NCBI GenBank assembly: GCA_963796285.1
Contig: CAWCKW010000001.1
Span: forward strand, 32,001-96,000
Length of the DNA: 64,000 nucleotides
Direction of reading: 5' to 3'
Origin: Nitrospirota bacterium
GTDB taxonomy: Bacteria; Nitrospirota; UBA9217
Both the position numbers and the translations under genes were made by a program. Below, piece after piece: positions 9,768-63,752 of this stretch (positions within the stretch are counted from its first letter, which is position 1; each line of letters begins with the position of its first letter). The notes below the pieces were generated by a model, which saw only the letters and a program-made list of their open reading frames with translations, had not been told where the DNA came from and searched no databases.

Positions 9768-10559
9768 TCATGCCTGCTCTTCCGCCTCCCACTCCTTCAG
9801 TTTTCCCGAGATGAACTCGATGATCTGCTGATGCTCTTCGGTACCGCGGTCCTTGATCCAGAGGGGTTTGCCGAAGGCGAAGTGAACCTTCTTCGACGGG
9901 TCGATCTTGCCGTAGTCCTTGAGGAACGTGCCGTTGCCCCAGGCATTGGTCTTGAGCGCGATCGGGACCACCGGCACCCCGGCTTTTTTTGCGAGTTTTA
10001 TCCCGATGGTGTTGAACTGTTCCGGGTCAAAAACCGGCGTCCGGGTGGTCTGGGGGAAGAGGATGATCGACATGCCCGCCTTCAGCCTCTCGGCGCCTCC
10101 CTCGAGCACTGCCTTCAGGTCCTCGCGGGGGTTCGTGCGGCCCACGGTAATGGGATTCCGCGAGCGCATGATGTGCTTGAAGATCGGGTAGTCGACAAGG
10201 CTCTGTTTGACGACAAAGGTCGCGTCTTTGAAGGGGGCTATGATCGTGGGGAGGATAAACGTTTCGAGCGTGCTCATATGATTTGCTATGAACACGCAGG
10301 GGCCTTCGACGGCCTTGAAGGAGTCGGTGCCGGTGATCTCGAACTTCACCCCCGCGGCTTCCAGCGCGCGGAGCGTTGCGAAGCTGTTTTCACACCATTC
10401 GGGCGTGCCGTACGGACCGCGCTTTGCCTGTGCGCTTCCCCGGACAACGATGGAGACGAGGCGGGTGTAAAAGGTGAACGAGGTCAGTGCCCGTGCCATG
10501 AAGGAAATGCGGACGGGACCTGTCCGGTAGGAGCCATTCTCGTACCTGAGCTCTTCCAA
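9768..10559 (-). CDS. 1-acyl-sn-glycerol-3-phosphate acyltransferase (PlsC family)
   Basis: NHMSTLE, FVVKQSL, ILFPQTTR; probable TTG start after AAGGAG. Confidence 0.85.
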   Translation of the reverse strand: MEELRYENGSYRTGPVRISFMARALTSFTFYTRLVSIVVRGSAQAKRGPYGTPEWCENSFATLRALEAAGVKFEITGTDSFKAVEGPCVFIANHMSTLETFILPTIIAPFKDATFVVKQSLVDYPIFKHIMRSRNPITVGRTNPREDLKAVLEGGAERLKAGMSIILFPQTTRTPVFDPEQFNTIGIKLAKKAGVPVVPIALKTNAWGNGTFLKDYGKIDPSKKVHFAFGKPLWIKDRGTEEHQQIIEFISGKLKEWEAEEQA

Positions 10560-10712
10560 ACAACGACTCCTTGCAATCAGGGTGCAGGGATACCTCGTGA
10601 AACGACGCCCAGTATACCATGCGAGGGGCAAAGAGTGAAGCGGGAAAAATACTCGTGTGAGGCAAAAACAAAATACTTGCAATACATCGGCGAAAAAGCG
10701 AAAATACGCACC

Positions 10713-12277
10713 ATGCAAACTCCTTCACTCAGGCGAGAAGTCGCTCAGATGGTCATGCCCCGGCTCGACGGCGCGAAACTCGGTGATCCCCGGTACCTCG
10801 AGCATATCTATGCGCTCATTCAGGAAGGAATCGGCGGTTTCATCCTCTTTGGGGGAACGGTCGAGCATACCCCGCGGCAGCTGCAGGAACTCCAGGCCCT
10901 TGCCGGGATCCCGCTGTTGATCACCTCCGACGTGGAGCGCGGCCTCGGTCAGCAGCTTGCCGGAGGGACGCGCTTCCCCAGCCAGCGCGCCGTTGCGTCG
11001 GCCGTTAACCGCCGCATCGAAAAAAGACGTCGAACTGCTTGACAAGATGCTCGATGCCGTGCGGATCGAGACGCGAGCAGCGGGCATTCATGCCGTCTTC
11101 TCTCCGGTCGTCGACGTGAACAACAATCCCGACAATCCCATCATCTGCACCCGGTCCTTCGGCGATGAACCCGAGATCGTCGAATGGTTCGGTTCGCGGT
11201 ACATCTCACGGCTTCAGAAGTCACGCGGGACGCGGGACAGGCTGGATCTCCTGGCCTGCGCCAAACATTTTCCGGGGCATGGGGACACGGACCAGGACTC
11301 GCATTCCGTTCTGCCTGTGATCCACGCCTCCCGGACTCGGCTGAACCGCGTCGAGCTCCCGCCGTTCCGCGAGGCGGTGAAGGACGGAGTAGGCATGGTC
11401 ATGGCGGCGCACCTGCTCGTGCCGGCACTGGATCCGGAAAAACCTACGACGTTCTCGAAAAAGACGATTACCGCGCTTTTGCGGGAGGGCATGGAATTCG
11501 ACGGGCTGATCGTATCCGATGCCCTTGACATGGGCGCACTCGCACGCCACCTACACACCGGAAGACATCGCCGTCCGTGCCGTGAATGCCGGGATAGATA
11601 TCTTGCTTCACCCGCGTGACGCGAACGTGACCATCGACGCGATCGTGTCCGCCGTGGAGCAGGGCAGGCTGACCAGCCAGCGGATCAGTGAATCCGTCGG
11701 GCGGATCATGATTGCAAAAACGCGCCTGGGCCTGTTCGACACGTCCGCACGGAAGGCCGTCCGGATCGATTATCAGAAACATCGGCGCATTGCCCGGGAT
11801 ATCGGGAAAAAGGCGCTTCGGATTACTTTCGGAGAAAAAAAGTTGTCCCCCCTGCCTCATGACGGCGGAGTGGTATGCTTCATCCTTGATGACGATAACA
11901 ACAGGGAATCGGGAGATGTCTTCGTCCGCGCGATGAGAGAGCGATGCAAGCACCTCCTTGCCGTGGTCCTGACACCGGGCTCGGAAATACCGGAATCCCT
12001 GGTGCTTGACAGTGTCAGGGCCTCGGAGTTTGTGGTCATAGCGGTTTATTCCAGGATCTCCGCTTCGAAAGGGCATTCCGGGCTCGACGACACCCTCCGG
12101 GACATTACCGTTAAAATATTAAAGACCGTCAAGTCGGAAAAGGGGAAATCGATCATGATCTCCTTCGACAGCCCTTATCTTCTCGACCGTTTCAAGGACG
12201 CCGATGTGCGCATCGCGGCCTATGACCGGATGGATGAGATCCAGCAGGCCGCCGCGGAGCTGCTGGCCGGGAAGTAG
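10713..12277 (+). CDS. Glycoside hydrolase family 3 beta-N-acetylhexosaminidase (NagZ-like; two apparent frameshifts)
   Basis: SDVERG, PVVDVN, RSFG, KHFPGHGDTDQDSH, SDALDMGAL over three frames, breaks near 11020 and 11545. Confidence 0.85.
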
Positions 12278-32285: not shown

Positions 32286-33605
32286 TTATACTCCGCCTTT
32301 TTCGATGCTCACCTTCTTCGTTACCTTCTGCCAGGTGAACTGTCCGCTTTCCTTGGTGCCGAAGGGCAGGTACATAAGCTCCACGTCCACCGTCATATCG
32401 TAATCAAGAATCGTGCGTACGACCTTGTCCCCTTGTTTCACCTCTTCAACGGGGAATAATATATCAAAGCTCTCGATCACAGGTTTGTTCGGCGGCAGAC
32501 TGCTGTCGCGCAGGATGCCGCTCTTTTCATAGGGTCCGCGGCCCATCTTATCGCCGCGGCCGAGCTGCTGGGGAATGGGCATGTAAATCTTCGACTGCTT
32601 GAACAACTCCTTGCCTTTACTGTCTCTCGCGGTCACTTCCAGGACCAGCCGGTTGGGGGTTGGTCAGCCGTCCGGGATGGAGTGGCCGGCGCGGTTTATC
32701 ATCTCCACCTTTACCAGCGCCTGCGGAACCATCTTCGCGCCGTCCCGCCACTGATAGCCCAGGGTCTCGACCTTGAAATCCACGGCCGCCTTTGCCATGC
32801 CTGGATCGCGGTAGCTCTGCATATTGTGGCCGAGCTTGCTCTTTTTCATGTGGCATTCCTGGCATTTTTCCTGCCCGCCTTCGGCTCGGTACGCCCAGAG
32901 ATAGCTGCCGTAAAGCGTGGCGCATTGCGAGGGGTTTTCAAGCTCCAGGTTCGGACCCAGGCCGTGGCACTGCCCGCAGAGGATCGATTCGTCCATGATC
33001 GGGCTCTTCTTCATCTTCGGATGAGTTGCATCGGCATGCATGCCGTCCCTGAAACCGTAGACCGTGTCTTTTTCCGGGAACCCGTCCACCCACTTGTGCG
33101 TGATGGCGTTCCGCTGATGGCAGATGAGGCAATTGATGTTCACCTTCGAAAGTTTGGCAACGGCCTTATCGCGCGCATCATCGCTTGTCTTGGGATCGGT
33201 GTAGATATAGGCGTACCTGACGATCTCTTTGGCAACGTCGTCCGTTGCCTCGGCAAGCTGTGGCAAATGGCACTTGGCGCAGATCATGAGGTGCTTCACT
33301 TGCACATCTTCCGGCTTCTTCACGCCGGAGTACTGCCAGCTGGTAAGGCCCACGGCCACCGTGGTCTTGATGGTTGCCGCGGTCCGGCCGGTCCCGAAGA
33401 TGGACCGAGAGTGGATGGACTGCTCCCACTCGTTGTAGATGCCTTCATGACACCCTTTGCAGCCGGTCGAGTCGTACATCTTTGCGAGCTCGTCGATATT
33501 TGTCGCTTTCTTCGCTTCCGCCGCGCCCGCGTCCCGGCCGAGCGTACCTGTCAGGAGTGGCAGCGCGAGCAGGGTGGAGAGGATAATGCACGTTAATCTT
33601 GTCAT
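32286..33605 (-). CDS. Five-heme cytochrome c selenoprotein, ExtKL-like (UGA = Sec at codon 314; 439 aa)
   Basis: Signal peptide; CKGCH, CAKCH, CLICH, CGQCH, CQECH; AGHSIPDG-TGA(32666-32664)-PTPNRLVLEVTARD reads in frame into ORF 32286-32636. Confidence 0.88.
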
Positions 33606-44796: not shown

Positions 44797-46224
44797 TCAA
44801 AAATGCATTGCATTCTGTATGATCGCGATCATCGGCCCCGGATACACCCCGAGCCAGATGAGCAGGATGACGAGCGCTGCGAGGACCATGCTGCCGGAAG
44901 GCGAAAGCACGGCTATAGTCTTGTCTTCTTGCTCCGAGTGAGAGAACATTGCGACGATGATCCGGAGATAGTAAAAGAGCCCGATAACGCTGTTCCCAAT
45001 CATCACAATAACAACCAGCCAGAGGGCGGATCCCACGCCTGCCGCGATGACGTAAAATTTCCCCACGAATCCGGCTGTCAGGGGAATGCCTGCGAGCGAG
45101 AACAGCATGAAGGTAAAGACACCCGCAAGCCATGGTCTTCTCCAGGCAAGGCCCTGATAATCGTCCATGCGATCGGCATCGCGGTCTTGTTCAGAGATCA
45201 CGGTGACCACACCAAATGCGCCGAGGGTGGTGATGAAATACGCCGTCAGATAAAAGGCGGCTGCGGTCATTGCCAGGGGGCCGCTTGCCAGAACGGTCAC
45301 GAGCAGATATCCCAGATGAGAGATCGACGAGTACGCGAGGATGCGCTTCACGTTTGTCTGGAACAGGGCGAGGAGATTGCCGGCGAACATCGACGCGATG
45401 GCGATGATGGTGAATATCGCGAATAGCGGCGTGTGGGAATGGATATCGATCAGGGTGAAGTAACGAAGCACGAGTGCGAACACCGCGCCTTTGGACACCG
45501 TGGCTATGAAGGCCGTCACGGGAGCCGGCGCTCCTTCGTACACATCGGGCGTCCACATGTGGAAGGGAACCACGGCGAGCTTGAACCCAAGTCCGACGAG
45601 GATCATCACGATACCGGCAAGGAACATCAGACGATGAGCTCCCGGACCTGCTGCGAAAGCAGCGATACCGCTGAACGCCATGCTGCCGCTTTCGGCATAC
45701 ACCAGCGCCATGCCGAAGAGGATGAATGCAGATGAGACCGCGGCCAGGATGAGGTACTTGATGCCGGCCTCGACACCACGGTCGCTGTGCCGGAGATAGG
45801 CTGCGAGGGCATAGAGCGAGACGCTTAAGAGTTCAATGCCGAGGAAGAACGAGGCAAAGTGAGCTGCTGCAGCGAGCACGGAGCAGCCGAGCGTGGCGAT
45901 GATCAGCAGCAGATAGAATTCCTCTCTATGTCCTTGTTGCATCTCAAGATAGGAATAAGAAAGGCCGGCCACGGCAAAGCTTGCTGCCACGATAAGACCG
46001 ATATAAAAAAGGGCGGAGTGGTCGACCACGAGAAGAGGAGTGACCAAGCGCGGGAGCGTGCAGGAAACGAGGGGAAGGCTTGCTGCCGACAGGAAAAGTC
46101 CCGAGAGTGTCAGGATGACAGTGAGCTTGTGGCTGCGGTTAAATGCGATGGTCAGCATGACCACAACTGCGGTGGCTGCAAGGATGATGAAGGGTGAAAG
46201 AGTCTGCAGGTAAGCGATGCTCAT
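44797..46224 (-). CDS. nuoN: NADH-quinone oxidoreductase subunit N
   Basis: EAGIKYLIL, FKLAVVPFHMWTPDVYEGAP, KRILAYSSISH, AGIPLTAGFVGKF. Confidence 0.96.
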   Translation of the reverse strand: MSIAYLQTLSPFIILAATAVVVMLTIAFNRSHKLTVILTLSGLFLSAASLPLVSCTLPRLVTPLLVVDHSALFYIGLIVAASFAVAGLSYSYLEMQQGHREEFYLLLIIATLGCSVLAAAAHFASFFLGIELLSVSLYALAAYLRHSDRGVEAGIKYLILAAVSSAFILFGMALVYAESGSMAFSGIAAFAAGPGAHRLMFLAGIVMILVGLGFKLAVVPFHMWTPDVYEGAPAPVTAFIATVSKGAVFALVLRYFTLIDIHSHTPLFAIFTIIAIASMFAGNLLALFQTNVKRILAYSSISHLGYLLVTVLASGPLAMTAAAFYLTAYFITTLGAFGVVTVISEQDRDADRMDDYQGLAWRRPWLAGVFTFMLFSLAGIPLTAGFVGKFYVIAAGVGSALWLVVIVMIGNSVIGLFYYLRIIVAMFSHSEQEDKTIAVLSPSGSMVLAALVILLIWLGVYPGPMIAIIQNAMHF

Positions 46225-47862
46225 TTTCCGCCTCCCTGATTGGAGGCAGGAAACGTCAAAATATTCACCACAGAGTTCACAGAGGTTTTTGAATATCTAA
46301 TAGATTTTATCTCGGCGTTCTCTGTAGTTATTTTATGAAGATTCATTGCGTTGTTATGATCTGGAATCTGAATCTCTCCGTGTTCTCTGTGGTTAACGAA
46401 TTGAATGGCATTTAGGAGCGGTTCGACTGTTTTCAGAACAGGCCGCGGGTAAAGGCCAAGCCAGAGTATCACGAGGACCATTACCGCCATCGAGCCTGTT
46501 TCGCGTGAAGAAAGGTCAATAAGCTTCAGACCATCTTGCCTCTTGCCATGGAACACGCGCTGGACGATCCAGAGCGAGTAGATCGCGGCCAGAACAAGCC
46601 CGCTGGCGGCGAACATGGTGATCACGGGGTGGGTCCGGTATGAACCGATCAGCACCATGAACTCGGCAACGAAATTGCCGAAACCCGGCAGGCCGAGTGA
46701 GGCAAGGGCAAAGACAAGACCGAAGCCGCCGAGTCGCGGCGCCGCTGACCAGAACCCGCCCATGCCTCCCAGCTCGCGGGTATGGACGCGCTCCTGGATC
46801 ATCCCGACGATGATGAACAGCGCGCCCGTGCTGATGCCGTGGGCCACCATCTGCATGGTCGCGCCTGAGAGGGCGATCTGATTCCCGGCGAAGATGCCGA
46901 TGAGCACAAAGCCCATGTGGCTCACGCTGGTATACGCCACGAGACGCTTCAAATCGGTTTGGCCAAACGCGAGCAGAGCGCCGTAGATGATACCGATGAC
47001 GCCCAGCACCAGCATTATCGGTCCAATGGTCGCAACAGCATCGGGGAAGAGCGGCAGCACGAAGCGCAGAAGTCCATAGGCCCCGGTCTTGAGCAGGAGC
47101 CCGGCAAGGACAACGCTTCCTGCTGTCGGTGCCTCGGTGTGGGCATCAGGCAGCCAGGGATGGAACGGGACGACCGGCAGCTTTACAATGAAACGCAATG
47201 ACAAACCCGAGCATGATCCAGAACGCTGCCTGGGAAGACAAGGCGATATGGCGCAGCAGCGAGTAATCGAAGGTATAAACGCCCGTGTCCTGGCCATGTA
47301 TGAAATAGAGTGCAAGGATCGAAAGGAGCATCAGCAGGCCGCCTGCCTGGGTGAAGATGAAGAACTTGAGCGATGCATAGACGCGGTTCTCGTGCCCCCA
47401 GATGTTGATCAGGAAGTACATCGGGATGAGCATCAACTCCCAGAAGAAGTAGAACAGGAACAGGTCCACGGCCAGAAACACGCCGAGGATCCCCGCGAGG
47501 ATCCAGAGCAGGTTCATGTGGAAGAACCCAACGCGCTCTCGGATCTCGGTCCAGGAGCAGATGACGGAGATGATACCGAGAAACAGGGTAAGCGCCACGA
47601 GTACGAGGCTCAGGCCGTCCATTGCGAGGTGCAGGCTGATGCCGAGCTGAGGGATCCACGGTTTGTTTATTTCGGTCAGCCAGGCGCTTTGAGTGAGATC
47701 GAGTCGGATGGCGGCGCTCGACCAGAATGATAACAGCAGGACGGCGTCGAGTGCGAGCGCGGCGAGGGACAGCCACCGGGACAGGGTGTTGTTCCTGTTC
47801 CCGAAGAACCATGCCAGCAGTCCGCCGATCAGCGGTATGATGATGAGCCAGATTAGGATCAT
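46221..47862 (-). CDS. nuoM: NADH-quinone oxidoreductase subunit M (apparent frameshift near 47185; repeat-derived C-terminal tail)
   Basis: FFWELMLIPMYF, VKLPVVPFHPWLPDAHTEAP, KRLVAYTSVSHMG. Confidence 0.93.
46267..46393. repeat. Inverted ACCACAGAG-type repeat doublet inside the nuoM 3' end
   Basis: ACCACAGAGTTCACAGAG (46267-46284) opposes CTCCGTGTTCTCTGTGGT (46376-46393), 15/18; third copy at 46311-46328. Confidence 0.6.
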
Positions 47863-48254
47863 GTAGTAGCCCCTCCCTTGATGGGAGGGGTTGGGGAGGG
47901 TGATTTCTGAGAGCAGGTTCTTAGAATCATTTCCAAAACCCCTTCGATTTTTGTAAGTACTTCATGATTCCAGAATCTTAAAACAGAGAACCCTTGTGAC
48001 ATTAGCCAGATATCCCGATGTGAATCAACTGCTTCAGAATGCTGACCACCATCAACTTCAACGACTACAGCTTTTTCATAACATACAAAATCCACAATGT
48101 AGTTGCCGATTGGTTCTTGTCTCCTGAACTTCAATCCTTCAACTTGCTTAAAACGCAGGTGCTTCCATAAGAATCTTTCTGCGTCAGTAGCGTTTTTCCG
48201 TAGGTTTTTGGCCTTCTTGGTTAGATCAAGCGTCAAAATGCCTTCCCTCCCCAA
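47859..48254 (-). CDS. DUF559 (Vsr-like) endonuclease between nuoL and nuoM
   Basis: LRKNATDAERFLW, KFRRQEPIGNYIVDF, VEVDGGQH, VLRFWN; true start may be TTG 48236. Confidence 0.92.
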   Translation of the reverse strand: MGREGILTLDLTKKAKNLRKNATDAERFLWKHLRFKQVEGLKFRRQEPIGNYIVDFVCYEKAVVVEVDGGQHSEAVDSHRDIWLMSQGFSVLRFWNHEVLTKIEGVLEMILRTCSQKSPSPTPPIKGGATT

Positions 48255-48279
48255 CCCCTCCCACTAGGGGAGGGGCTAC
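47866..48279. mobile_element. Inverted-repeat-bounded DUF559 cassette 1
   Basis: 35-bp IRs at 47866-47900 and 48245-48279 match except in the hairpin loop; both start with GTAG on their own strand. Confidence 0.7.
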
Positions 48280-48283
48280 AGCT

Positions 48284-50175
48284 CTATTGAAGAAGCATCA
48301 CGATCCCCAAAAACACTACCGCGCCTACGACCATCGCCATCGCGTACCACCTGATGTTGCCGGTCTGGGTCTTACTCAGTGTTGTGCTCAGCACACGATT
48401 CAATGACGCGATGCCGGCATACCCGGAATCGATGAGATCATGCCTGCTGATGCGCGTGAGCCACATAAATGGCCGTATAAAAAGACGGTCATACATCGCG
48501 TCGAAGTCCCATCCAGCGAGCCAGAATTTTCTGATCGACTCGAACGTGCGTACACGGGCGATCCGATCAGCGTATTGAGGACCATCGGACAAAGAACAGG
48601 TAGGCGATGAAGATGCCTGAAAGGGAAACGATCGACGCGATGATCTGGAGCATGCCTTCACCGACGACGGGTTCAATGGCCTTTTCGCTGAACACCGTCC
48701 GCAGGAAGTTCGAGAACAGGGGCTGGTTCCCGAGCGTCTCCGGCAGCTCCACAAACCCTCCGATGATCGAGAGTACGGCAAGGATGATGAGCGGTGCGAG
48801 CATCTTTGCCCCCGGCTTATGGCTTACCGGTGTTTTTAATTCTCCAAAGAAGGTGAGGAAAACCATGCGGAAGGTGTAGATCGACGTAATGAACGCACCG
48901 AAGAGTCCGGCAGCCCACAAGGCCATGCTACCTGAACCGGATGACCAGGCTTTCCACAGGATCAGGTCCTTGCTGTAGAATCCCGCTGTCACGAGCGGAA
49001 GGGCGGACAAGGAAGCTGAACCGATCAGAAATGTCCAGAATACGGCCGGAAGTTTGTTCTTCAAACCTCCCATCTTGAACATGTCCTGCTCGTGGTGCTG
49101 GGCAAGGATCACTGCGCCAGCGCCGAGGAACAGGAGCGCCTTGAAGAACGCGTGTGTCATGAGGTGGAAGATGGCTGCGGACCAGGCGCCCACGCCAAGG
49201 GCCAGGAACATGTATCCGAGCTGGCTGATGGTGGAGTAGGCGAGGACGCGCTTGATGTCTTTTTGCGCCATCGCGCTGAGGCCCGCGACCAGAAGCGTGG
49301 CTGCTCCGAGGACAGCGATCACCGATTGCACAACAGGCGCGAGCTCGAACAGGACATGGGTCCGTGCAATAAGGTACACGCCGGCGGTGACCATGGTTGC
49401 TGCGTGGATCAGGGCACTGACAGGCGTGGGACCTGCCATGGCGTCGGGCAGCCATACCTGGAAGGGTAGCTGGGCTGATTTTCCGAGAGCCCCGCCAAGC
49501 AGAAGGGCGGCGGCAAGAACCGCGGTTTCAGAACCAACAGACCATTGTTTCGGGGCGAGGGTCATCAGCTCCTGAATATTCAGGGTGCCGAGGTTCGTGA
49601 ACAGGAGGAAAAGACCCAATGCCATGGCAGTGTCGCCGACGCGTGTCACGATGAAGGCCTTTCTCGCGGCACGGCCGTTTGTTGGGTCCGAATACCAGAA
49701 GCCGATCAGGAGATAGCTGCAAAGCCCGACACCTTCCCACCCGAGGTACAGGAGCAGCAGGTTGTCGGCGAGCACGAGGAGAAGCATCGAGCCCACGAAG
49801 AGGTTCATATACGCGAAGAAGCGGCTATAGCCCTCGTCTTCGATCATGTATTCCGTAGAATAAAGGTGGATAACCAATCCCACAATGGTGACGATCAGTA
49901 TCATGACCAGCGAAAGGGCATCGAGAGAGAAGGAGATCGGTTGCGAATATCCCTCGAACTCCATCCACGTCCAGAGCGTCTGGGTGATGGCGTGACCCTG
50001 CGGTGGATTGCCGATGAACTCGAATCGCCATGAGAACGGCAAGGAGCGCGGACATTCCCACCGAGCCTGCGCCTACGAAGGCGATAGTCGTCCTCGAAAG
50101 ACGGCGGCCTATCAGCGCCAGGACAAGGAATCCGGCAAAAGGCAGAGCGGGTATGAGGAAGAGAAATTCGTTCAT
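48284..50175 (-). CDS. nuoL: NADH-quinone oxidoreductase subunit L (apparent frameshifts near 50025 and 48585)
   Basis: GWEGVGLCSYLLIGFW, GKSAQLP, WLPDAMAGPTPVSALIHAATMV, THAFFKALLF. Confidence 0.93.
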
Positions 50176-50184
50176 AGTCAGGTT

Positions 50185-50271
50185 GTAGCCTCCCCCTTTA
50201 ATGGGGGAGGTTGGTGGGGGTAAGTTCCGACTTTTCACCCTCCCCTCAGTCCCCTCCCATCAAGGGAGGGG
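50185..50271. repeat. Gene-less REP doublet of the DUF559-flank family between nuoK and nuoL
   Basis: GTAG-CCTCCCCC-TTTAAT-GGGGGAGG-TTGGTGGGGG opposed to CCCTCCCCTCAGT-CCCCTCCC-ATCAA-GGGAGGGG. Confidence 0.75.
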
Positions 50272-51664: not shown

Positions 51665-52122
51665 TTTGACAGGAGAACAGGATAAAATCTGATAATGCTA
51701 CTTCAATCGCCTGAGCTTGCGCTTGATTTCGACTTTATCTTCACCAAAGTTAATGAGAAGTCCGATAGGTTTCCCTGTCGCAACGAGATAATTCACTAAT
51801 TGAACTTCGTGTACCTTGACAAGCTGCTTTATGGCCTTCAGTTCGAGAATAACCGTATCGTTTACAATAAGGTCTGCAATAAAATCGCCGACGAGTTCGC
51901 CGTCATAATATACTTGTATGGTTTTTGAGTCTCGACCTTTAACGCTGCTTTTCGTAATTCAATAACCAAGCATTTCTCATAAACGCTTTCAAGAAATCCT
52001 GCACCCATTTTATTATAAACGCGATATGCACAGGCAATGATTTTTTCAGTCAGTTCTTTGTATTCCAATTGGCCTCCGACAGATTCTCGCTCTTATCCTG
52101 TCAATCCTGTTATCCTGTCAAA
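51665..52122. mobile_element. Inverted-repeat-bounded GxxExxY cassette between nuoH and nuoI
   Basis: TTTGACAGGAGAACAGGAT (51665-51683) vs ATCCTGTTATCCTGTCAAA (52104-52122), 18/19 inverted; extra ATCCTGTCA unit at 52095. Confidence 0.65.
51698..52068 (-). CDS. GxxExxY protein (PD-(D/E)xK nuclease family; apparent frameshift near 51920)
   Basis: GFLESVY; second frame [28 protein letters not shown]...HEVQLVNYL...GLLINFG, TAG at 51700-51698. Confidence 0.88.
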
Positions 52123-57388: not shown

Positions 57389-57781
57389 TTACCTCCTCTC
57401 CCCGAGGGGAGAGGATAGAGGTGAGGGGGTGTGTTGTCTTTGTTCTATTGCTCTCAAAATTGCTTCGTATATTCCTTCTTTGTTTAGCAATATATCCCTA
57501 TTGTTGAATCTGATAATATGTATGCCCCGCGCTGACAGCGCCTTTTCTCTCTCTGCGTCATGCGTCGCGCCCTTATTTTCATAATGCTGGCCGCCGTCTG
57601 CTTCAATGGCAATTTGCAATTCAGGTGCATAGAAGTCCAGGATGTATTTGTCGATAGAAAACTGTCGTCTGAATTTAATACGAGCCAATCGTCGATCGCG
57701 TAAGAGCGACCAAAGATTTCTTTCCGCGTCAGTTTGATTTCTGCGAAGTTCTCTGCTTCTCGGTATATTGGGTCGTTTCAA
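57389..57781 (-). CDS. DUF559 (Vsr-like) endonuclease between nuoCD and nuoE
   Basis: LRRNQTDAERNLW, KFRRQFSIDKYILDFY, IEADGGQH, IIRFNN. Confidence 0.92.
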   Translation of the reverse strand: MKRPNIPRSRELRRNQTDAERNLWSLLRDRRLARIKFRRQFSIDKYILDFYAPELQIAIEADGGQHYENKGATHDAEREKALSARGIHIIRFNNRDILLNKEGIYEAILRAIEQRQHTPSPLSSPLGERR

Positions 57782-57821
57782 CTTCCCCCCTCACCCCAGC
57801 CCTCTCCCCACAGGGAGAGGG
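57394..57821. mobile_element. Inverted-repeat-bounded DUF559 cassette 2
   Basis: TCCTCTCCC-CGAG-GGGAGAGGA-TAGAGGTGAGGGG (57394-57428) opposes CCCCTCACCCCAG-CCCTCTCCC-CACA-GGGAGAGGG (57787-57821). Confidence 0.7.
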
Positions 57822-61140: not shown

Positions 61141-62487
61141 CTATTTTGCGGTTGTACCGCCATACCGCTCATTGTAGAACTTCTGGATCTTGTCAAGCTG
61201 CTCTTTGGTCATGCCCTTGGTATACCACTCGTGCCTGACATCGGTCTCGAGGTATTGTTTCACGATCTCGTTATAGAGCTCCGGACCGGCAACGTTCTTT
61301 ACCTCGGGCAGGAACTCGGTATAGAAGTTCTTGGCCACATCATAGATACCATGCCACCACGCATAATCGGGGCCGGACATGGCCGCGCCGTGCCTTGCTC
61401 TTCTGCCTTCATGGTGCCACAGCTCCCAGTATATCCAGTCCAGCTTGTCGTCGAAATTCGCCTTTGTAAGCTTGCCCTTGTCCATCAGTTCCTGCCTGAT
61501 CGCGGTCGCGGGTTTTGCGAATTTGTCGTCATACAGATTGACAAGATTATCGAACTGTTTATAGAACCCTTCCACGAAGGGCGTTGAATGGCAGCTGTTA
61601 CAGACGTTCTGCATGGCAGCGCGCTTTTTATCCGCGTTCTCCATCTTCTTCGAAATGGGCGGCCGAAGCGTCCAGCTGATCCGGGCGCCTACGTCATGGG
61701 TCACTGCCTGGGTCGGCGTGGCGCTCATATGGCAGGTGGCGCAGGTGGGGGCGGCGGAATAATCCTGTCCAACGACCCACTTGTCCTTGTGCATGTTCAT
61801 CCGTTCCTTGTTGGCCTCGTAAAGGATCCCGTGCTTTGATTCCTGATATACTTCCATCTGCGGATGGTCAGGGCCGAGATGGCATTTACCGCAGGTCTGG
61901 GGTTCTCGTGCCTGCGCTTTTGAGAAACTGTGGCGCGCATGGCAGGCCGAGCAGGACCCCTTGGAGCCGTCGGGGTTTATTCTGCCGATGCCCGTGTTCG
62001 GCCAGCTATTGGTGTCGAGCTTACCATTTGCCAGGACCTTGACAATACCTCCATGGCACTGCAGACAGCCGACCGCAACGGCCTCCTGTCCACCCACGAC
62101 CTCGCCGAGATAGTTGTCCGCGGAATTGAGGATGTCCCCGGCTTTGGCATGGTGGCTCTCGGTCATCTCCTTTTCTTCCTTAGCGTGGCATTTGCCGCAG
62201 TCCTTGGGAGTGACGAGGATCGCGATCGTATATCCATTGTGCTCCATGGCATCAGGATCGGACTTCTCCGCCTTGTGGCAGGTGTAGCAGTCTACGCCTT
62301 TTGCCGCGTGGGTGCTCAGCTTCCATTCCGTGACAAAGGCTGGTGACTGTGCCTCGTGACAACCTATGCAGGCCTGACCTTCTTTTGATACTTTTAGCTT
62401 TGCCGCTTCGCCCGACCCGGCATGGAACGTCATGACCATGCTGAGCACCACTGATAGAACAATGATCGATACCTGGTTCCTTTTCAT
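61141..62487 (-). CDS. Octaheme cytochrome c, hydroxylamine oxidoreductase (HAO) family
   Basis: Signal peptide; 8 CxxCH; GIGRINPDGSKGSCSACH, CHLGPDHPQ, ESKHG, HHEGRRARHGAAMSGPDYAWWHG. Confidence 0.9.
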   Translation of the reverse strand: MKRNQVSIIVLSVVLSMVMTFHAGSGEAAKLKVSKEGQACIGCHEAQSPAFVTEWKLSTHAAKGVDCYTCHKAEKSDPDAMEHNGYTIAILVTPKDCGKCHAKEEKEMTESHHAKAGDILNSADNYLGEVVGGQEAVAVGCLQCHGGIVKVLANGKLDTNSWPNTGIGRINPDGSKGSCSACHARHSFSKAQAREPQTCGKCHLGPDHPQMEVYQESKHGILYEANKERMNMHKDKWVVGQDYSAAPTCATCHMSATPTQAVTHDVGARISWTLRPPISKKMENADKKRAAMQNVCNSCHSTPFVEGFYKQFDNLVNLYDDKFAKPATAIRQELMDKGKLTKANFDDKLDWIYWELWHHEGRRARHGAAMSGPDYAWWHGIYDVAKNFYTEFLPEVKNVAGPELYNEIVKQYLETDVRHEWYTKGMTKEQLDKIQKFYNERYGGTTAK

Positions 62488-63675: not shown

Positions 63676-63752
63676 CGGGGCGTGGCGCAGCCTGGTAGCG
63701 TACTCGCTTGGGGTGCGAGTGGTCGGCCGTTCAAATCGGCTCGCCCCGACCA
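63676..63752 (+). tRNA. tRNA-Pro (GGG)
   Basis: CGGGGCG/CGCCCCG acceptor stem, CTCGC-TTGGGGT-GCGAG anticodon arm, GTTCAAATC T-loop, encoded CCA; 77 nt. Confidence 0.97.

Follow-up and report, generated by a model that had tools for sequence, protein, structure and literature searches.

What kind of element is a small nuclease gene that lies in the spacer between two operon genes and is enclosed by two almost perfectly matching inverted repeats? The question is raised by 64,000 nucleotides of DNA from a Nitrospirota bacterium (GTDB lineage Bacteria; Nitrospirota; UBA9217; GenBank assembly GCA_963796285.1, contig CAWCKW010000001.1, positions 32,001 to 96,000 of the forward strand), here called the window. 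Its minus strand carries a nuo operon with nuoA, B, CD, E, F, G, H, I, J, K, L, M and N, and the spacer between nuoL and nuoM holds a gene of the DUF559 family together with its flanking repeats, here called cassette 1. A first-pass annotation, made from the sequence alone, had likened these repeats to the palindromic repeats of extragenic DNA (REP sequences) recognised by REP-associated tyrosine transposases (RAYTs). The answer that we favour, and to which we give about an even chance of being right, is that this is a compact DUF559 nuclease cassette, mobile now or formerly, with triplex motifs as its ends and BoxC-type repeats as its gene-less derivatives. What may be new is the link between gene and repeat at the level of the system. 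The copy in the window is itself one member of a very large family, with 4693 word-indexed homologues and with 24,089 cluster representatives at E <= 1e-3 or 11,804 at E <= 1e-10.

A nuclease gene between matching arms

On the operon strand, the nuoL-nuoM spacer is filled exactly by cassette 1. The nuoL stop codon (48284..48286, minus strand) stands 4 nt from one arm and the nuoM start codon (47860..47862, minus strand) 3 nt from the other. A repeat search returns two arms of 35 nt each (47866-47900 and 48245-48279), separated by 344 nt and 91% complementary (32/35). The first-pass annotation had described a near-perfect 35-bp inverted repeat in which every non-loop position matches, with internal hairpins and GTAG ends, and all of this is borne out for the present copy. 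The 30 non-loop positions are complementary throughout because the three mismatches all fall within the 5-nt loops (TTGAT versus ACTAG, plus strand). Each arm contains a perfect 8-bp hairpin (47870-47890 and 48255-48275), and the outer ends of the cassette are GTAG and CTAC. The pattern CCCCTCCC-N3-8-GGGAGGGG occurs three times in the window, the third match being at 50251-50271, with 0.00 matches expected from 100 shuffles. Folding energies of the arms as single-stranded DNA are -9.9 to -10.1 kcal/mol, and z relative to shuffles is -2.3 to -3.6.

The hairpins described earlier are thus confirmed, but a third block had been missed. The inner 8-10 nt of each arm mirrors the adjacent stem arm, in the order GGGAGGGG, TT, GGGGAGGG. 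In gene orientation, the upstream arm (48245..48279, minus strand) consists of GTAG, the 8-bp hairpin at 48255-48275, TT and a G-rich mirror block, and the downstream arm (47866..47900, minus strand) consists of a C-rich mirror block, AA, the 8-bp hairpin at 47870-47890 (loop ATCAA on the minus strand) and CTAC. As a separate observation, the G arm and mirror G block of window arms, such as that at 47883-47900, make up four G-runs with loops of 1-3 nt, a potential G-quadruplex that could rival the hairpin or triplex.

The enclosed open reading frame (47859..48254, minus strand; 131 codons as listed) matches PF04480 over residues 11-114 with 139.4 bits (gathering cutoff 20.6; E = 5e-41), and its protein has no further Pfam domain. 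The closest solved relative is an "endonuclease-like protein" from N. gonorrhoeae (PDB 3HRL, E = 1.3e-29), and NF007294 (YcjD) is matched at E = 5.5e-34, below its curated cutoff. Residues K42, R45, E66, D68, H72 and D77 are invariant in an alignment of 122 sequences. By homology, the product is a predicted DUF559 nuclease of the YcjD type with a Vsr/EDxHD-like fold. The PF04480 match and the Vsr-fold relative 3HRL agree with the earlier description of the gene as encoding a Vsr-like nuclease. Membership in a defence system was considered and rejected, given that the PADLOC matches are weak and partial only (DpdF, mREase_II). Carriage by phages or plasmids was rejected as well: tblastn found matches in 2 records out of 50,697 from phages and in 39 out of 72,556 from plasmids, and many of the plasmid records listed have lengths of 0.4-4.9 Mb. 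Three homologues (P0121, P0130 and P0188; 262-377 aa) contain two or three DUF559 stretches in one protein and may be fused tandem cassettes.

The arms also reach into the reading of the gene. Its true start is likely the TTG at 48236, opposite which the close homologues P0004 and P0005 have their Met. The inner G block stands 8 nt before this putative start, and the G-rich mirror block of the upstream arm likely doubles as the Shine-Dalgarno site of the DUF559 gene. At the other end, the reading frame runs on into the downstream arm for its last ~15 codons, its TGA stop shares bases with the nuoM ATG (ATGA), and the G arm of the downstream arm ends 7 nt upstream of the nuoM start codon. Among the 120 closest proteins, 95 end in a PP-x-x-GG tail and seven in a PSHQGRG-type tail. 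The two tail types are the same hairpin DNA in two frames; therefore, what is conserved is the nucleic acid rather than the peptide. The G+C content of cassette 1 is 39-42%, versus about 54-61% in its flanks.

The arms as triplex motifs

The window holds three elements of this kind, all within nuo spacers. Between nuoK and nuoL lies an inverted pair of triplex-type motifs with no gene between them (50185..50271, minus strand; 87 nt with a 17-nt spacer). Its nuoK-side end (50238-50271, plus strand) is a close match to the arms of cassette 1, the pair folds at -26 kcal/mol (z -4.3), and its layout, 17-nt spacer included, is that of the TMECO pair 1+2 of E. coli K-12. Between nuoCD and nuoE lies cassette 2, with a second DUF559 gene (57392..57781, minus strand; PF04480, 114.5 bits, E = 2.7e-33) whose protein is 41% identical to that of cassette 1 and whose arms differ in stem sequence. 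The upstream arm of cassette 2 (57785..57821, minus strand) comprises a hairpin at 57800-57821 and a mirror block, and the downstream arm (57394..57429, minus strand) a mirror block and a hairpin at 57394-57415. A GGAGG at the edge of the downstream arm stands 9 nt before the nuoE start codon, and the terminal G arms of the three elements stand 7-13 nt before nuoM, nuoL and nuoE. Perfect hairpins whose stem reaches 7 bp or more number 46 in the window. Nine of them have an all-pyrimidine 5' arm, and the six C-run hairpins among those nine are exactly the arms of the three elements.

All six arms share one layout: a C-rich arm, a complementary G-rich arm and a mirroring G-rich block, joined by short loops. 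Because of the mirror third block, the arms can be assigned, on the strength of their layout, to the intrastrand triplex motif class that was named BoxC, then PIT and then TMECO in E. coli. The exact published TMECO pattern has one match in the window, in a cassette 2 arm (57788-57821, minus strand), with 0 expected. The cassette 1 arms, with 8-nt stems and a 2-nt second loop, lie outside the strict pattern of 9-nt stems with loops of 3-6 and 3 nt. Holder et al. 2015 describe 23 TMECO copies in K-12, always intergenic, with inverted pairs at five sites (PMC4666352). According to the same paper, an isolated strand forms a triplex in vitro, the motifs are tied to local genome instability, and mobility functions were never found near them (PMC4666352). 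The words ycjD, DUF559 and endonuclease are absent from its main text.

Other identities for the arms were tried and rejected. At gathering thresholds, Rfam returns a tRNA at 63676-63749 only, which leaves no known RNA family for the arms. Intrinsic termination was dismissed, given that on the operon strand no T-run follows either hairpin and that the published tests of the E. coli motif were negative (PMC4666352).

The same unit in other phyla

When one genome of each species was scanned, 590 of the 600 candidate stretches proved to be relatives, and the locus counts rest on the best 80 of these. The 80 loci come from Nitrospirota, Thermodesulfobacteriota, Aminicenantes, Brocadiales, Chloroflexota, Alpha-, Beta- and Gammaproteobacteria, Chlamydiota, Elusimicrobiota and Spirochaetota. 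A perfect hairpin of the arm type lies within 130 nt upstream of the gene at 60 of the 80 loci, downstream at 64 and on both sides at 50, and such a hairpin is present in 11 of 1139 control windows. The link between DUF559 genes and hairpins therefore extends across phyla, and the prospect that the first-pass annotation had named as fatal to its view, that most DUF559 homologues lack such flanks, is contradicted by these counts. A chance origin of the arms was ruled out by the shuffles (0.00 expected), the control windows and the TMECO pattern (0 expected).

The third block is equally widespread. The inner block mirrors the adjacent arm with at most one mismatch in 45 of 60 cases on the upstream side and in 46 of 64 on the downstream side, versus 2 of 60 and 4 of 64 in an outer-side control. 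The mirror mismatches are A-to-T or the complement in 73 of 94 instances, which fits the T.A:T triad rule of the purine triplex, and the exact TMECO pattern is present at 17 of the 80 related loci.

Stems vary between loci while their pairing is kept, which supports the earlier reading of cassette 1 on this point. The accompanying proposal of a variable loop does not extend to the relatives. Among the 50 loci with both hairpins, the two loops are within one mismatch of being reverse complements at 22, compared with a shuffle mean of 6.2 and maximum of 14, and they are exact reverse complements at 16. Both stems are identical, or one is contained in the other, at 24 of these loci, compared with a shuffle mean of 9.2 and maximum of 18. 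The two ends of a unit change in concert.

The units measure 393-522 nt at the 50 loci with both hairpins, and the G+C content of the coding core is below that of the flanks at 79 of the 80 loci, by 8.9 points on average. They sit in intergenic spacers and are mostly co-oriented with the upstream gene (57 of 70 determinable loci, by crude gene calls). The neighbouring genes differ from locus to locus, with examples such as pheS/pheT, etfB/etfA, hsdS/hsdR, prpD and sdhB/citrate synthase (64 of 140 neighbour open reading frames scanned). All stem types listed hold a GGAG, GAGG or GAAGG core paired with a CCTC-like arm. The motif also occurs away from the gene: in the 446 kb examined, 49 triplex-type motifs are separated by more than 200 nt from every DUF559 match. 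In one Dehalococcoidia locus (L072, 1820-3572), 12 exact matches to the TMECO pattern surround a single DUF559 gene, with complete gene-less pairs on both sides.

The GTAG and CTAC ends are lineage-specific. They are found at one of the 50 loci with both hairpins and are shared only by the window and that locus (L001); a matching GGAT tail is present in 54 of the 120 closest proteins.

An old insertion kept by selection

L001, from a Nitrospirota metagenome-assembled genome, has the same order of nuoL, DUF559 gene and nuoM, with nuoL and nuoM intact and with the same junction at the nuoM start codon. Another DUF559 gene lies between its nuoM and nuoN. The arms of the two cassettes are identical at 68 of 70 positions; both differences are in the loop of the upstream arm, and the downstream arm is identical at 35 of 35. 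Nucleotide identity is 73% in the coding core, 75.6% in nuoM and 73.9% in nuoL. For the DUF559 gene, dS is about 1.95, which is saturated, and dN/dS is 0.09 (109 codons). Arms and protein have been kept despite saturated synonymous divergence; therefore, strong purifying selection acts on both. To judge from these comparisons, cassette 1 is an old insertion, vertically inherited and kept by selection, and not a fresh one. RAYT genes likewise show vertical inheritance under purifying selection.

ycjD and its motifs in E. coli

The DUF559 gene of E. coli is ycjD (1351407-1351760), with TMECO no. 9 lying 168 nt downstream and a degenerate arm at its stop codon. In the ycjD-fabI region of K-12 (L081, 4040-4840), a second copy of 23 nt from the ycjD 3' end lies about 80 nt downstream, ahead of TMECO no. 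9, and there is a 16-bp inverted repeat upstream of ycjD. By its sequence, the locus resembles a tandem of units that has decayed.

The 61-nt motif region is present in 5426 of 5426 complete E. coli genomes, at a median of 18 places per genome, and ycjD is accessory, being present in 3378 of 5426. Phylogroups A, B1 and C are those for which the gene has been reported (PMC12817139). Among the 59 chromosomes of a spread sample, the 37 with the full ycjD-side locus hold 14-29 motif places and the 22 without it hold 1-24, with a median of 6; the ycjD-side locus serves here as a proxy for ycjD, and phylogroup confounds the comparison. The association of that locus with higher motif numbers is suggestive, a lead only. 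Motif counts in these chromosomes look bimodal, at 14-29 and mostly 1-7. The K-12 pair of triplex motifs between hrpB and mrcB is absent in E. coli Z247 and is collapsed to one hairpin in 07_3337.

A proposed cassette with triplex-motif ends

The observations above can be joined in a single model. The unit is a self-contained element of about 420 bp, with one small DUF559 gene inside an inverted pair of BoxC/PIT/TMECO-type motifs, each laid out as C-rich arm, loop, G-rich arm, 2-5 nt and mirror G-rich block. Transcription from the upstream gene would run through into the DUF559 gene, the inner G block would provide the ribosome-binding site of that gene, and in tight operons such as nuo the terminal G arm would take the place of the next host gene's ribosome-binding site. 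The arms would act in cis as the ends of the element and would be bound by a dimer of the encoded nuclease, which may recognise either their palindromic duplex form or a hairpin or triplex extruded on single-stranded DNA. A precedent for such recognition is I-Bth0305I, a Vsr-like homing enzyme described as a dimer that cuts a pseudo-palindromic site (PMC3239194). The nuclease would then nick or cut at the arms, and host repair or recombination would finish the movement or copying. Non-autonomous derivatives of the element would be the pairs and solo motifs that lack the gene, such as the pair at 50185-50271 and the BoxC/TMECO repeats of E. coli.

Several points weigh against this model. The action of the nuclease on the arms is something that we infer, and a hydrolytic PD-(D/E)XK nuclease alone cannot join strands. 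A perfect hairpin is missing on one side in 16-20 of the 80 loci, and protein identity is weakly coupled to stem type (0.568 versus 0.544). Flanking direct repeats or target-site duplications were not seen at the 50 loci with both hairpins, nor was a clean target-site duplication seen at the filled and empty hrpB-mrcB junction in E. coli. The same nuo insertion is present in L001, where nuoL and nuoM are 74-76% identical to those of the window, which argues for long vertical inheritance and not for recent jumping. The motif is present in all 5426 E. coli genomes, with ycjD in 3378 only. The terminal arm lies 5-14 nt from the next start codon at only 7 of 52 loci; therefore, a role as ribosome-binding site is not general, and although the arrangement holds in the window, such a general role was rejected. 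Finally, Holder et al. report that a triplex was not detected in vivo for the E. coli motifs and that these had no promoter or terminator activity (PMC4666352).

A bolder form of the model, in which units of DUF559 gene and triplex motifs are an unrecognised class of minimal autonomous mobile element of ~0.4 kb, is put forward tentatively and seems to us doubtful. If it is true, a Vsr-fold hydrolytic nuclease would stand in for a DDE, HUH, serine or tyrosine recombinase and act on hairpin or triplex DNA ends, and the BoxC/PIT/TMECO repeats of E. coli, like those of the triplex-motif-rich genomes of cyanobacteria, Enterobacter and Neisseria, would be the non-autonomous progeny of such elements.

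The link between gene and repeat suggests a source for the BoxC/TMECO repeats. It gives the family and the repeats each a testable role, in a setting where E. coli K-12 has one ycjD and 23 motifs, and it would show a selfish cassette that resides in essential operons without breaking them. Among the titles listed for the literature on DUF559, ycjD and "intrastrand triplex", none joins the gene to the repeats; older BoxC/PIT papers and supplements fall outside that scope, and prior notice there is possible.

Alternative explanations

The motif pairs might instead be an independent repeat family, into which a free-standing DUF559 gene resembling a homing endonuclease is copied by repair after cutting the centre of a pair, so that the arms are a split target and not the ends of a unit. 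Gene-less pairs with a spacer of about 17 nt, present both in the window and in E. coli, would supply such targets. Separable modules are also suggested by L001, where a complete pair precedes the second DUF559 gene and two more motifs come after it, and by L072, where one gene lies amid 12 pattern matches. The weak coupling of protein to stem and the persistence of the motif in E. coli genomes without ycjD point the same way, and Vsr-like enzymes include known homing endonucleases (PMC3239194). Yet this explanation leaves the spread of the pairs themselves unaccounted for, the distance from gene to arm is tightly fixed on both sides, the arms appear to serve the gene's own translation start, and the spacers of the gene-less pairs do not clearly resemble the inner ends of gene-bearing units. 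We consider it unlikely. Its site-specific variant, homing into nuo, was rejected: the neighbours are unrelated between loci, and with such diverse neighbours the unit is not a site-specific homing element.

It is quite unlikely, in our judgement, that the unit is instead a module for expression or insulation, in which the arms act in RNA or in translation by shielding the transcript, by sequestering or supplying ribosome-binding sites or by coupling translation. The nuclease would then have an unrelated cellular role in repair, defence or RNA processing, and the flanks would reflect the needs of expression and not mobility. Much of the architecture is what such a module would have: co-orientation with the upstream gene at 57 of 70 loci, GGAG, GAGG or GAAGG cores in all stem types listed, an inner G block 8 nt before the likely TTG, terminal G arms 7-13 nt before nuoM, nuoL and nuoE, and a cassette 1 stop that overlaps the nuoM start codon. 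The long vertical maintenance at dN/dS 0.09 also fits, and Vsr-like RAP domains reportedly act on RNA. However, roles in RNA need no match between the two ends, yet the ends match, loops included; gene-less pairs and solo motifs also lie away from any DUF559 gene; and the terminal arm is near a start codon at few loci. In addition, the mirror block obeys the rule of the DNA purine triplex, a triplex type described as not forming in RNA, and the E. coli motifs are reported to lack promoter and terminator activity (PMC4666352).

The reading closest to the first-pass annotation is that the arms are true REP sequences with a GTAG head, paired as REPINs and moved by a Y1 transposase encoded elsewhere, with the DUF559 gene as a bystander. 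GTAG and CTAC do flank the hairpins in the window copy and in L001, and RAYT genes are found as single genes within an inverted REP pair. The GTAG signature thus stands for this copy, but the REP/RAYT system does not: GTAG ends occur at 1 of 50 loci, the hairpins are tied to DUF559 genes across phyla, and REP sequences are not known to have a mirror third block. A Y1/RAYT (PF01797-type) transposase was not found among the 77 open reading frames scanned in the window. With no such transposase among these frames and with GTAG lineage-specific, the likeness to REP/RAYT is therefore by analogy only, and the reading itself is very improbable.

Other features of the operon and window

Two further low-G+C inserts are present in the nuo operon. 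Between nuoI and nuoH, a broken nuclease gene of the GxxExxY/PDDEXK_3 type (TIGR04256, PF13366) is spread over two frames at 51698-52068 (minus strand). It is flanked by word repeats of the CAGGAT type and is the operon's second type of small nuclease cassette. Between nuoM and nuoN, a gene-less insert of about 170 nt (46225-46420) has inverted repeats of the CACAGAG type and a CCTCC/GGAGG hairpin right before the nuoN start, at the junction where L001 has its second DUF559 gene.

The nuoM (46221-47862) and nuoL (48284-50175) genes of the window each lie in two overlapping frames and are intact in L001, and a glycosyl hydrolase family 3 gene (9831-12274) is split into three pieces. The split frames may be either assembly indels or real pseudogenes. 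Multihaem cytochrome c genes are found beside the nuo operon (61144-62487) and elsewhere in the window (32667-33605, minus strand).

Comparison with known systems

The published BoxC/PIT/TMECO repeats resemble the window elements in the order of C arm, loop, G arm, short loop and mirror G block, and in being intergenic and either single or in inverted pairs. They differ in that the repeats were described without an associated gene (PMC4666352), whereas the motifs of the window bracket a nuclease gene. YcjD and 3HRL belong to the same DUF559 family as the cassette 1 protein, but the E. coli copy, unlike cassette 1, has decayed flanks and a duplicated 3' gene fragment.

The EDxHD homing endonuclease I-Bth0305I shares with the cassette protein a Vsr-type core with conserved E, D, H and D and a selfish-gene-like character. 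It is, however, a protein of 266 aa with N-terminal DNA-binding motifs, intron-encoded and specific for one site (PMC3239194), whereas the cassette protein has about 115-130 aa and is free-standing, repeat-flanked and found at many unrelated sites.

MITEs (miniature transposable elements with inverted repeats) and their parent insertion sequences have terminal inverted repeats, a short gene-less and a longer gene-bearing form, and a preference for intergenic sites, as does the unit. Unlike them, the unit comes with no match to a known transposase class among the 77 open reading frames scanned in the window and with no target-site duplication at the 50 loci or at the filled and empty site in E. 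coli. Typical insertion sequences are also larger than the unit of about 420 bp.

The REP/REPIN-RAYT systems are alike in having short, G+C-rich intergenic hairpin repeats, an inverted pair around a single nuclease-type gene, and gene-less copies elsewhere. In REP/RAYT systems such copies number in the tens to hundreds in a genome; the 64 kb of the window holds one gene-less pair. They are unlike the cassette in several respects: the cassette protein is PD-(D/E)XK/Vsr-like and not a Y1 HUH transposase, the arms bear a mirror third block and have no conserved GTAG head, and the window has two genes per one gene-less pair. By analogy, the relation of the gene-less motifs to the gene-bearing unit may resemble that of REPINs to RAYT genes or of MITEs to insertion sequences.

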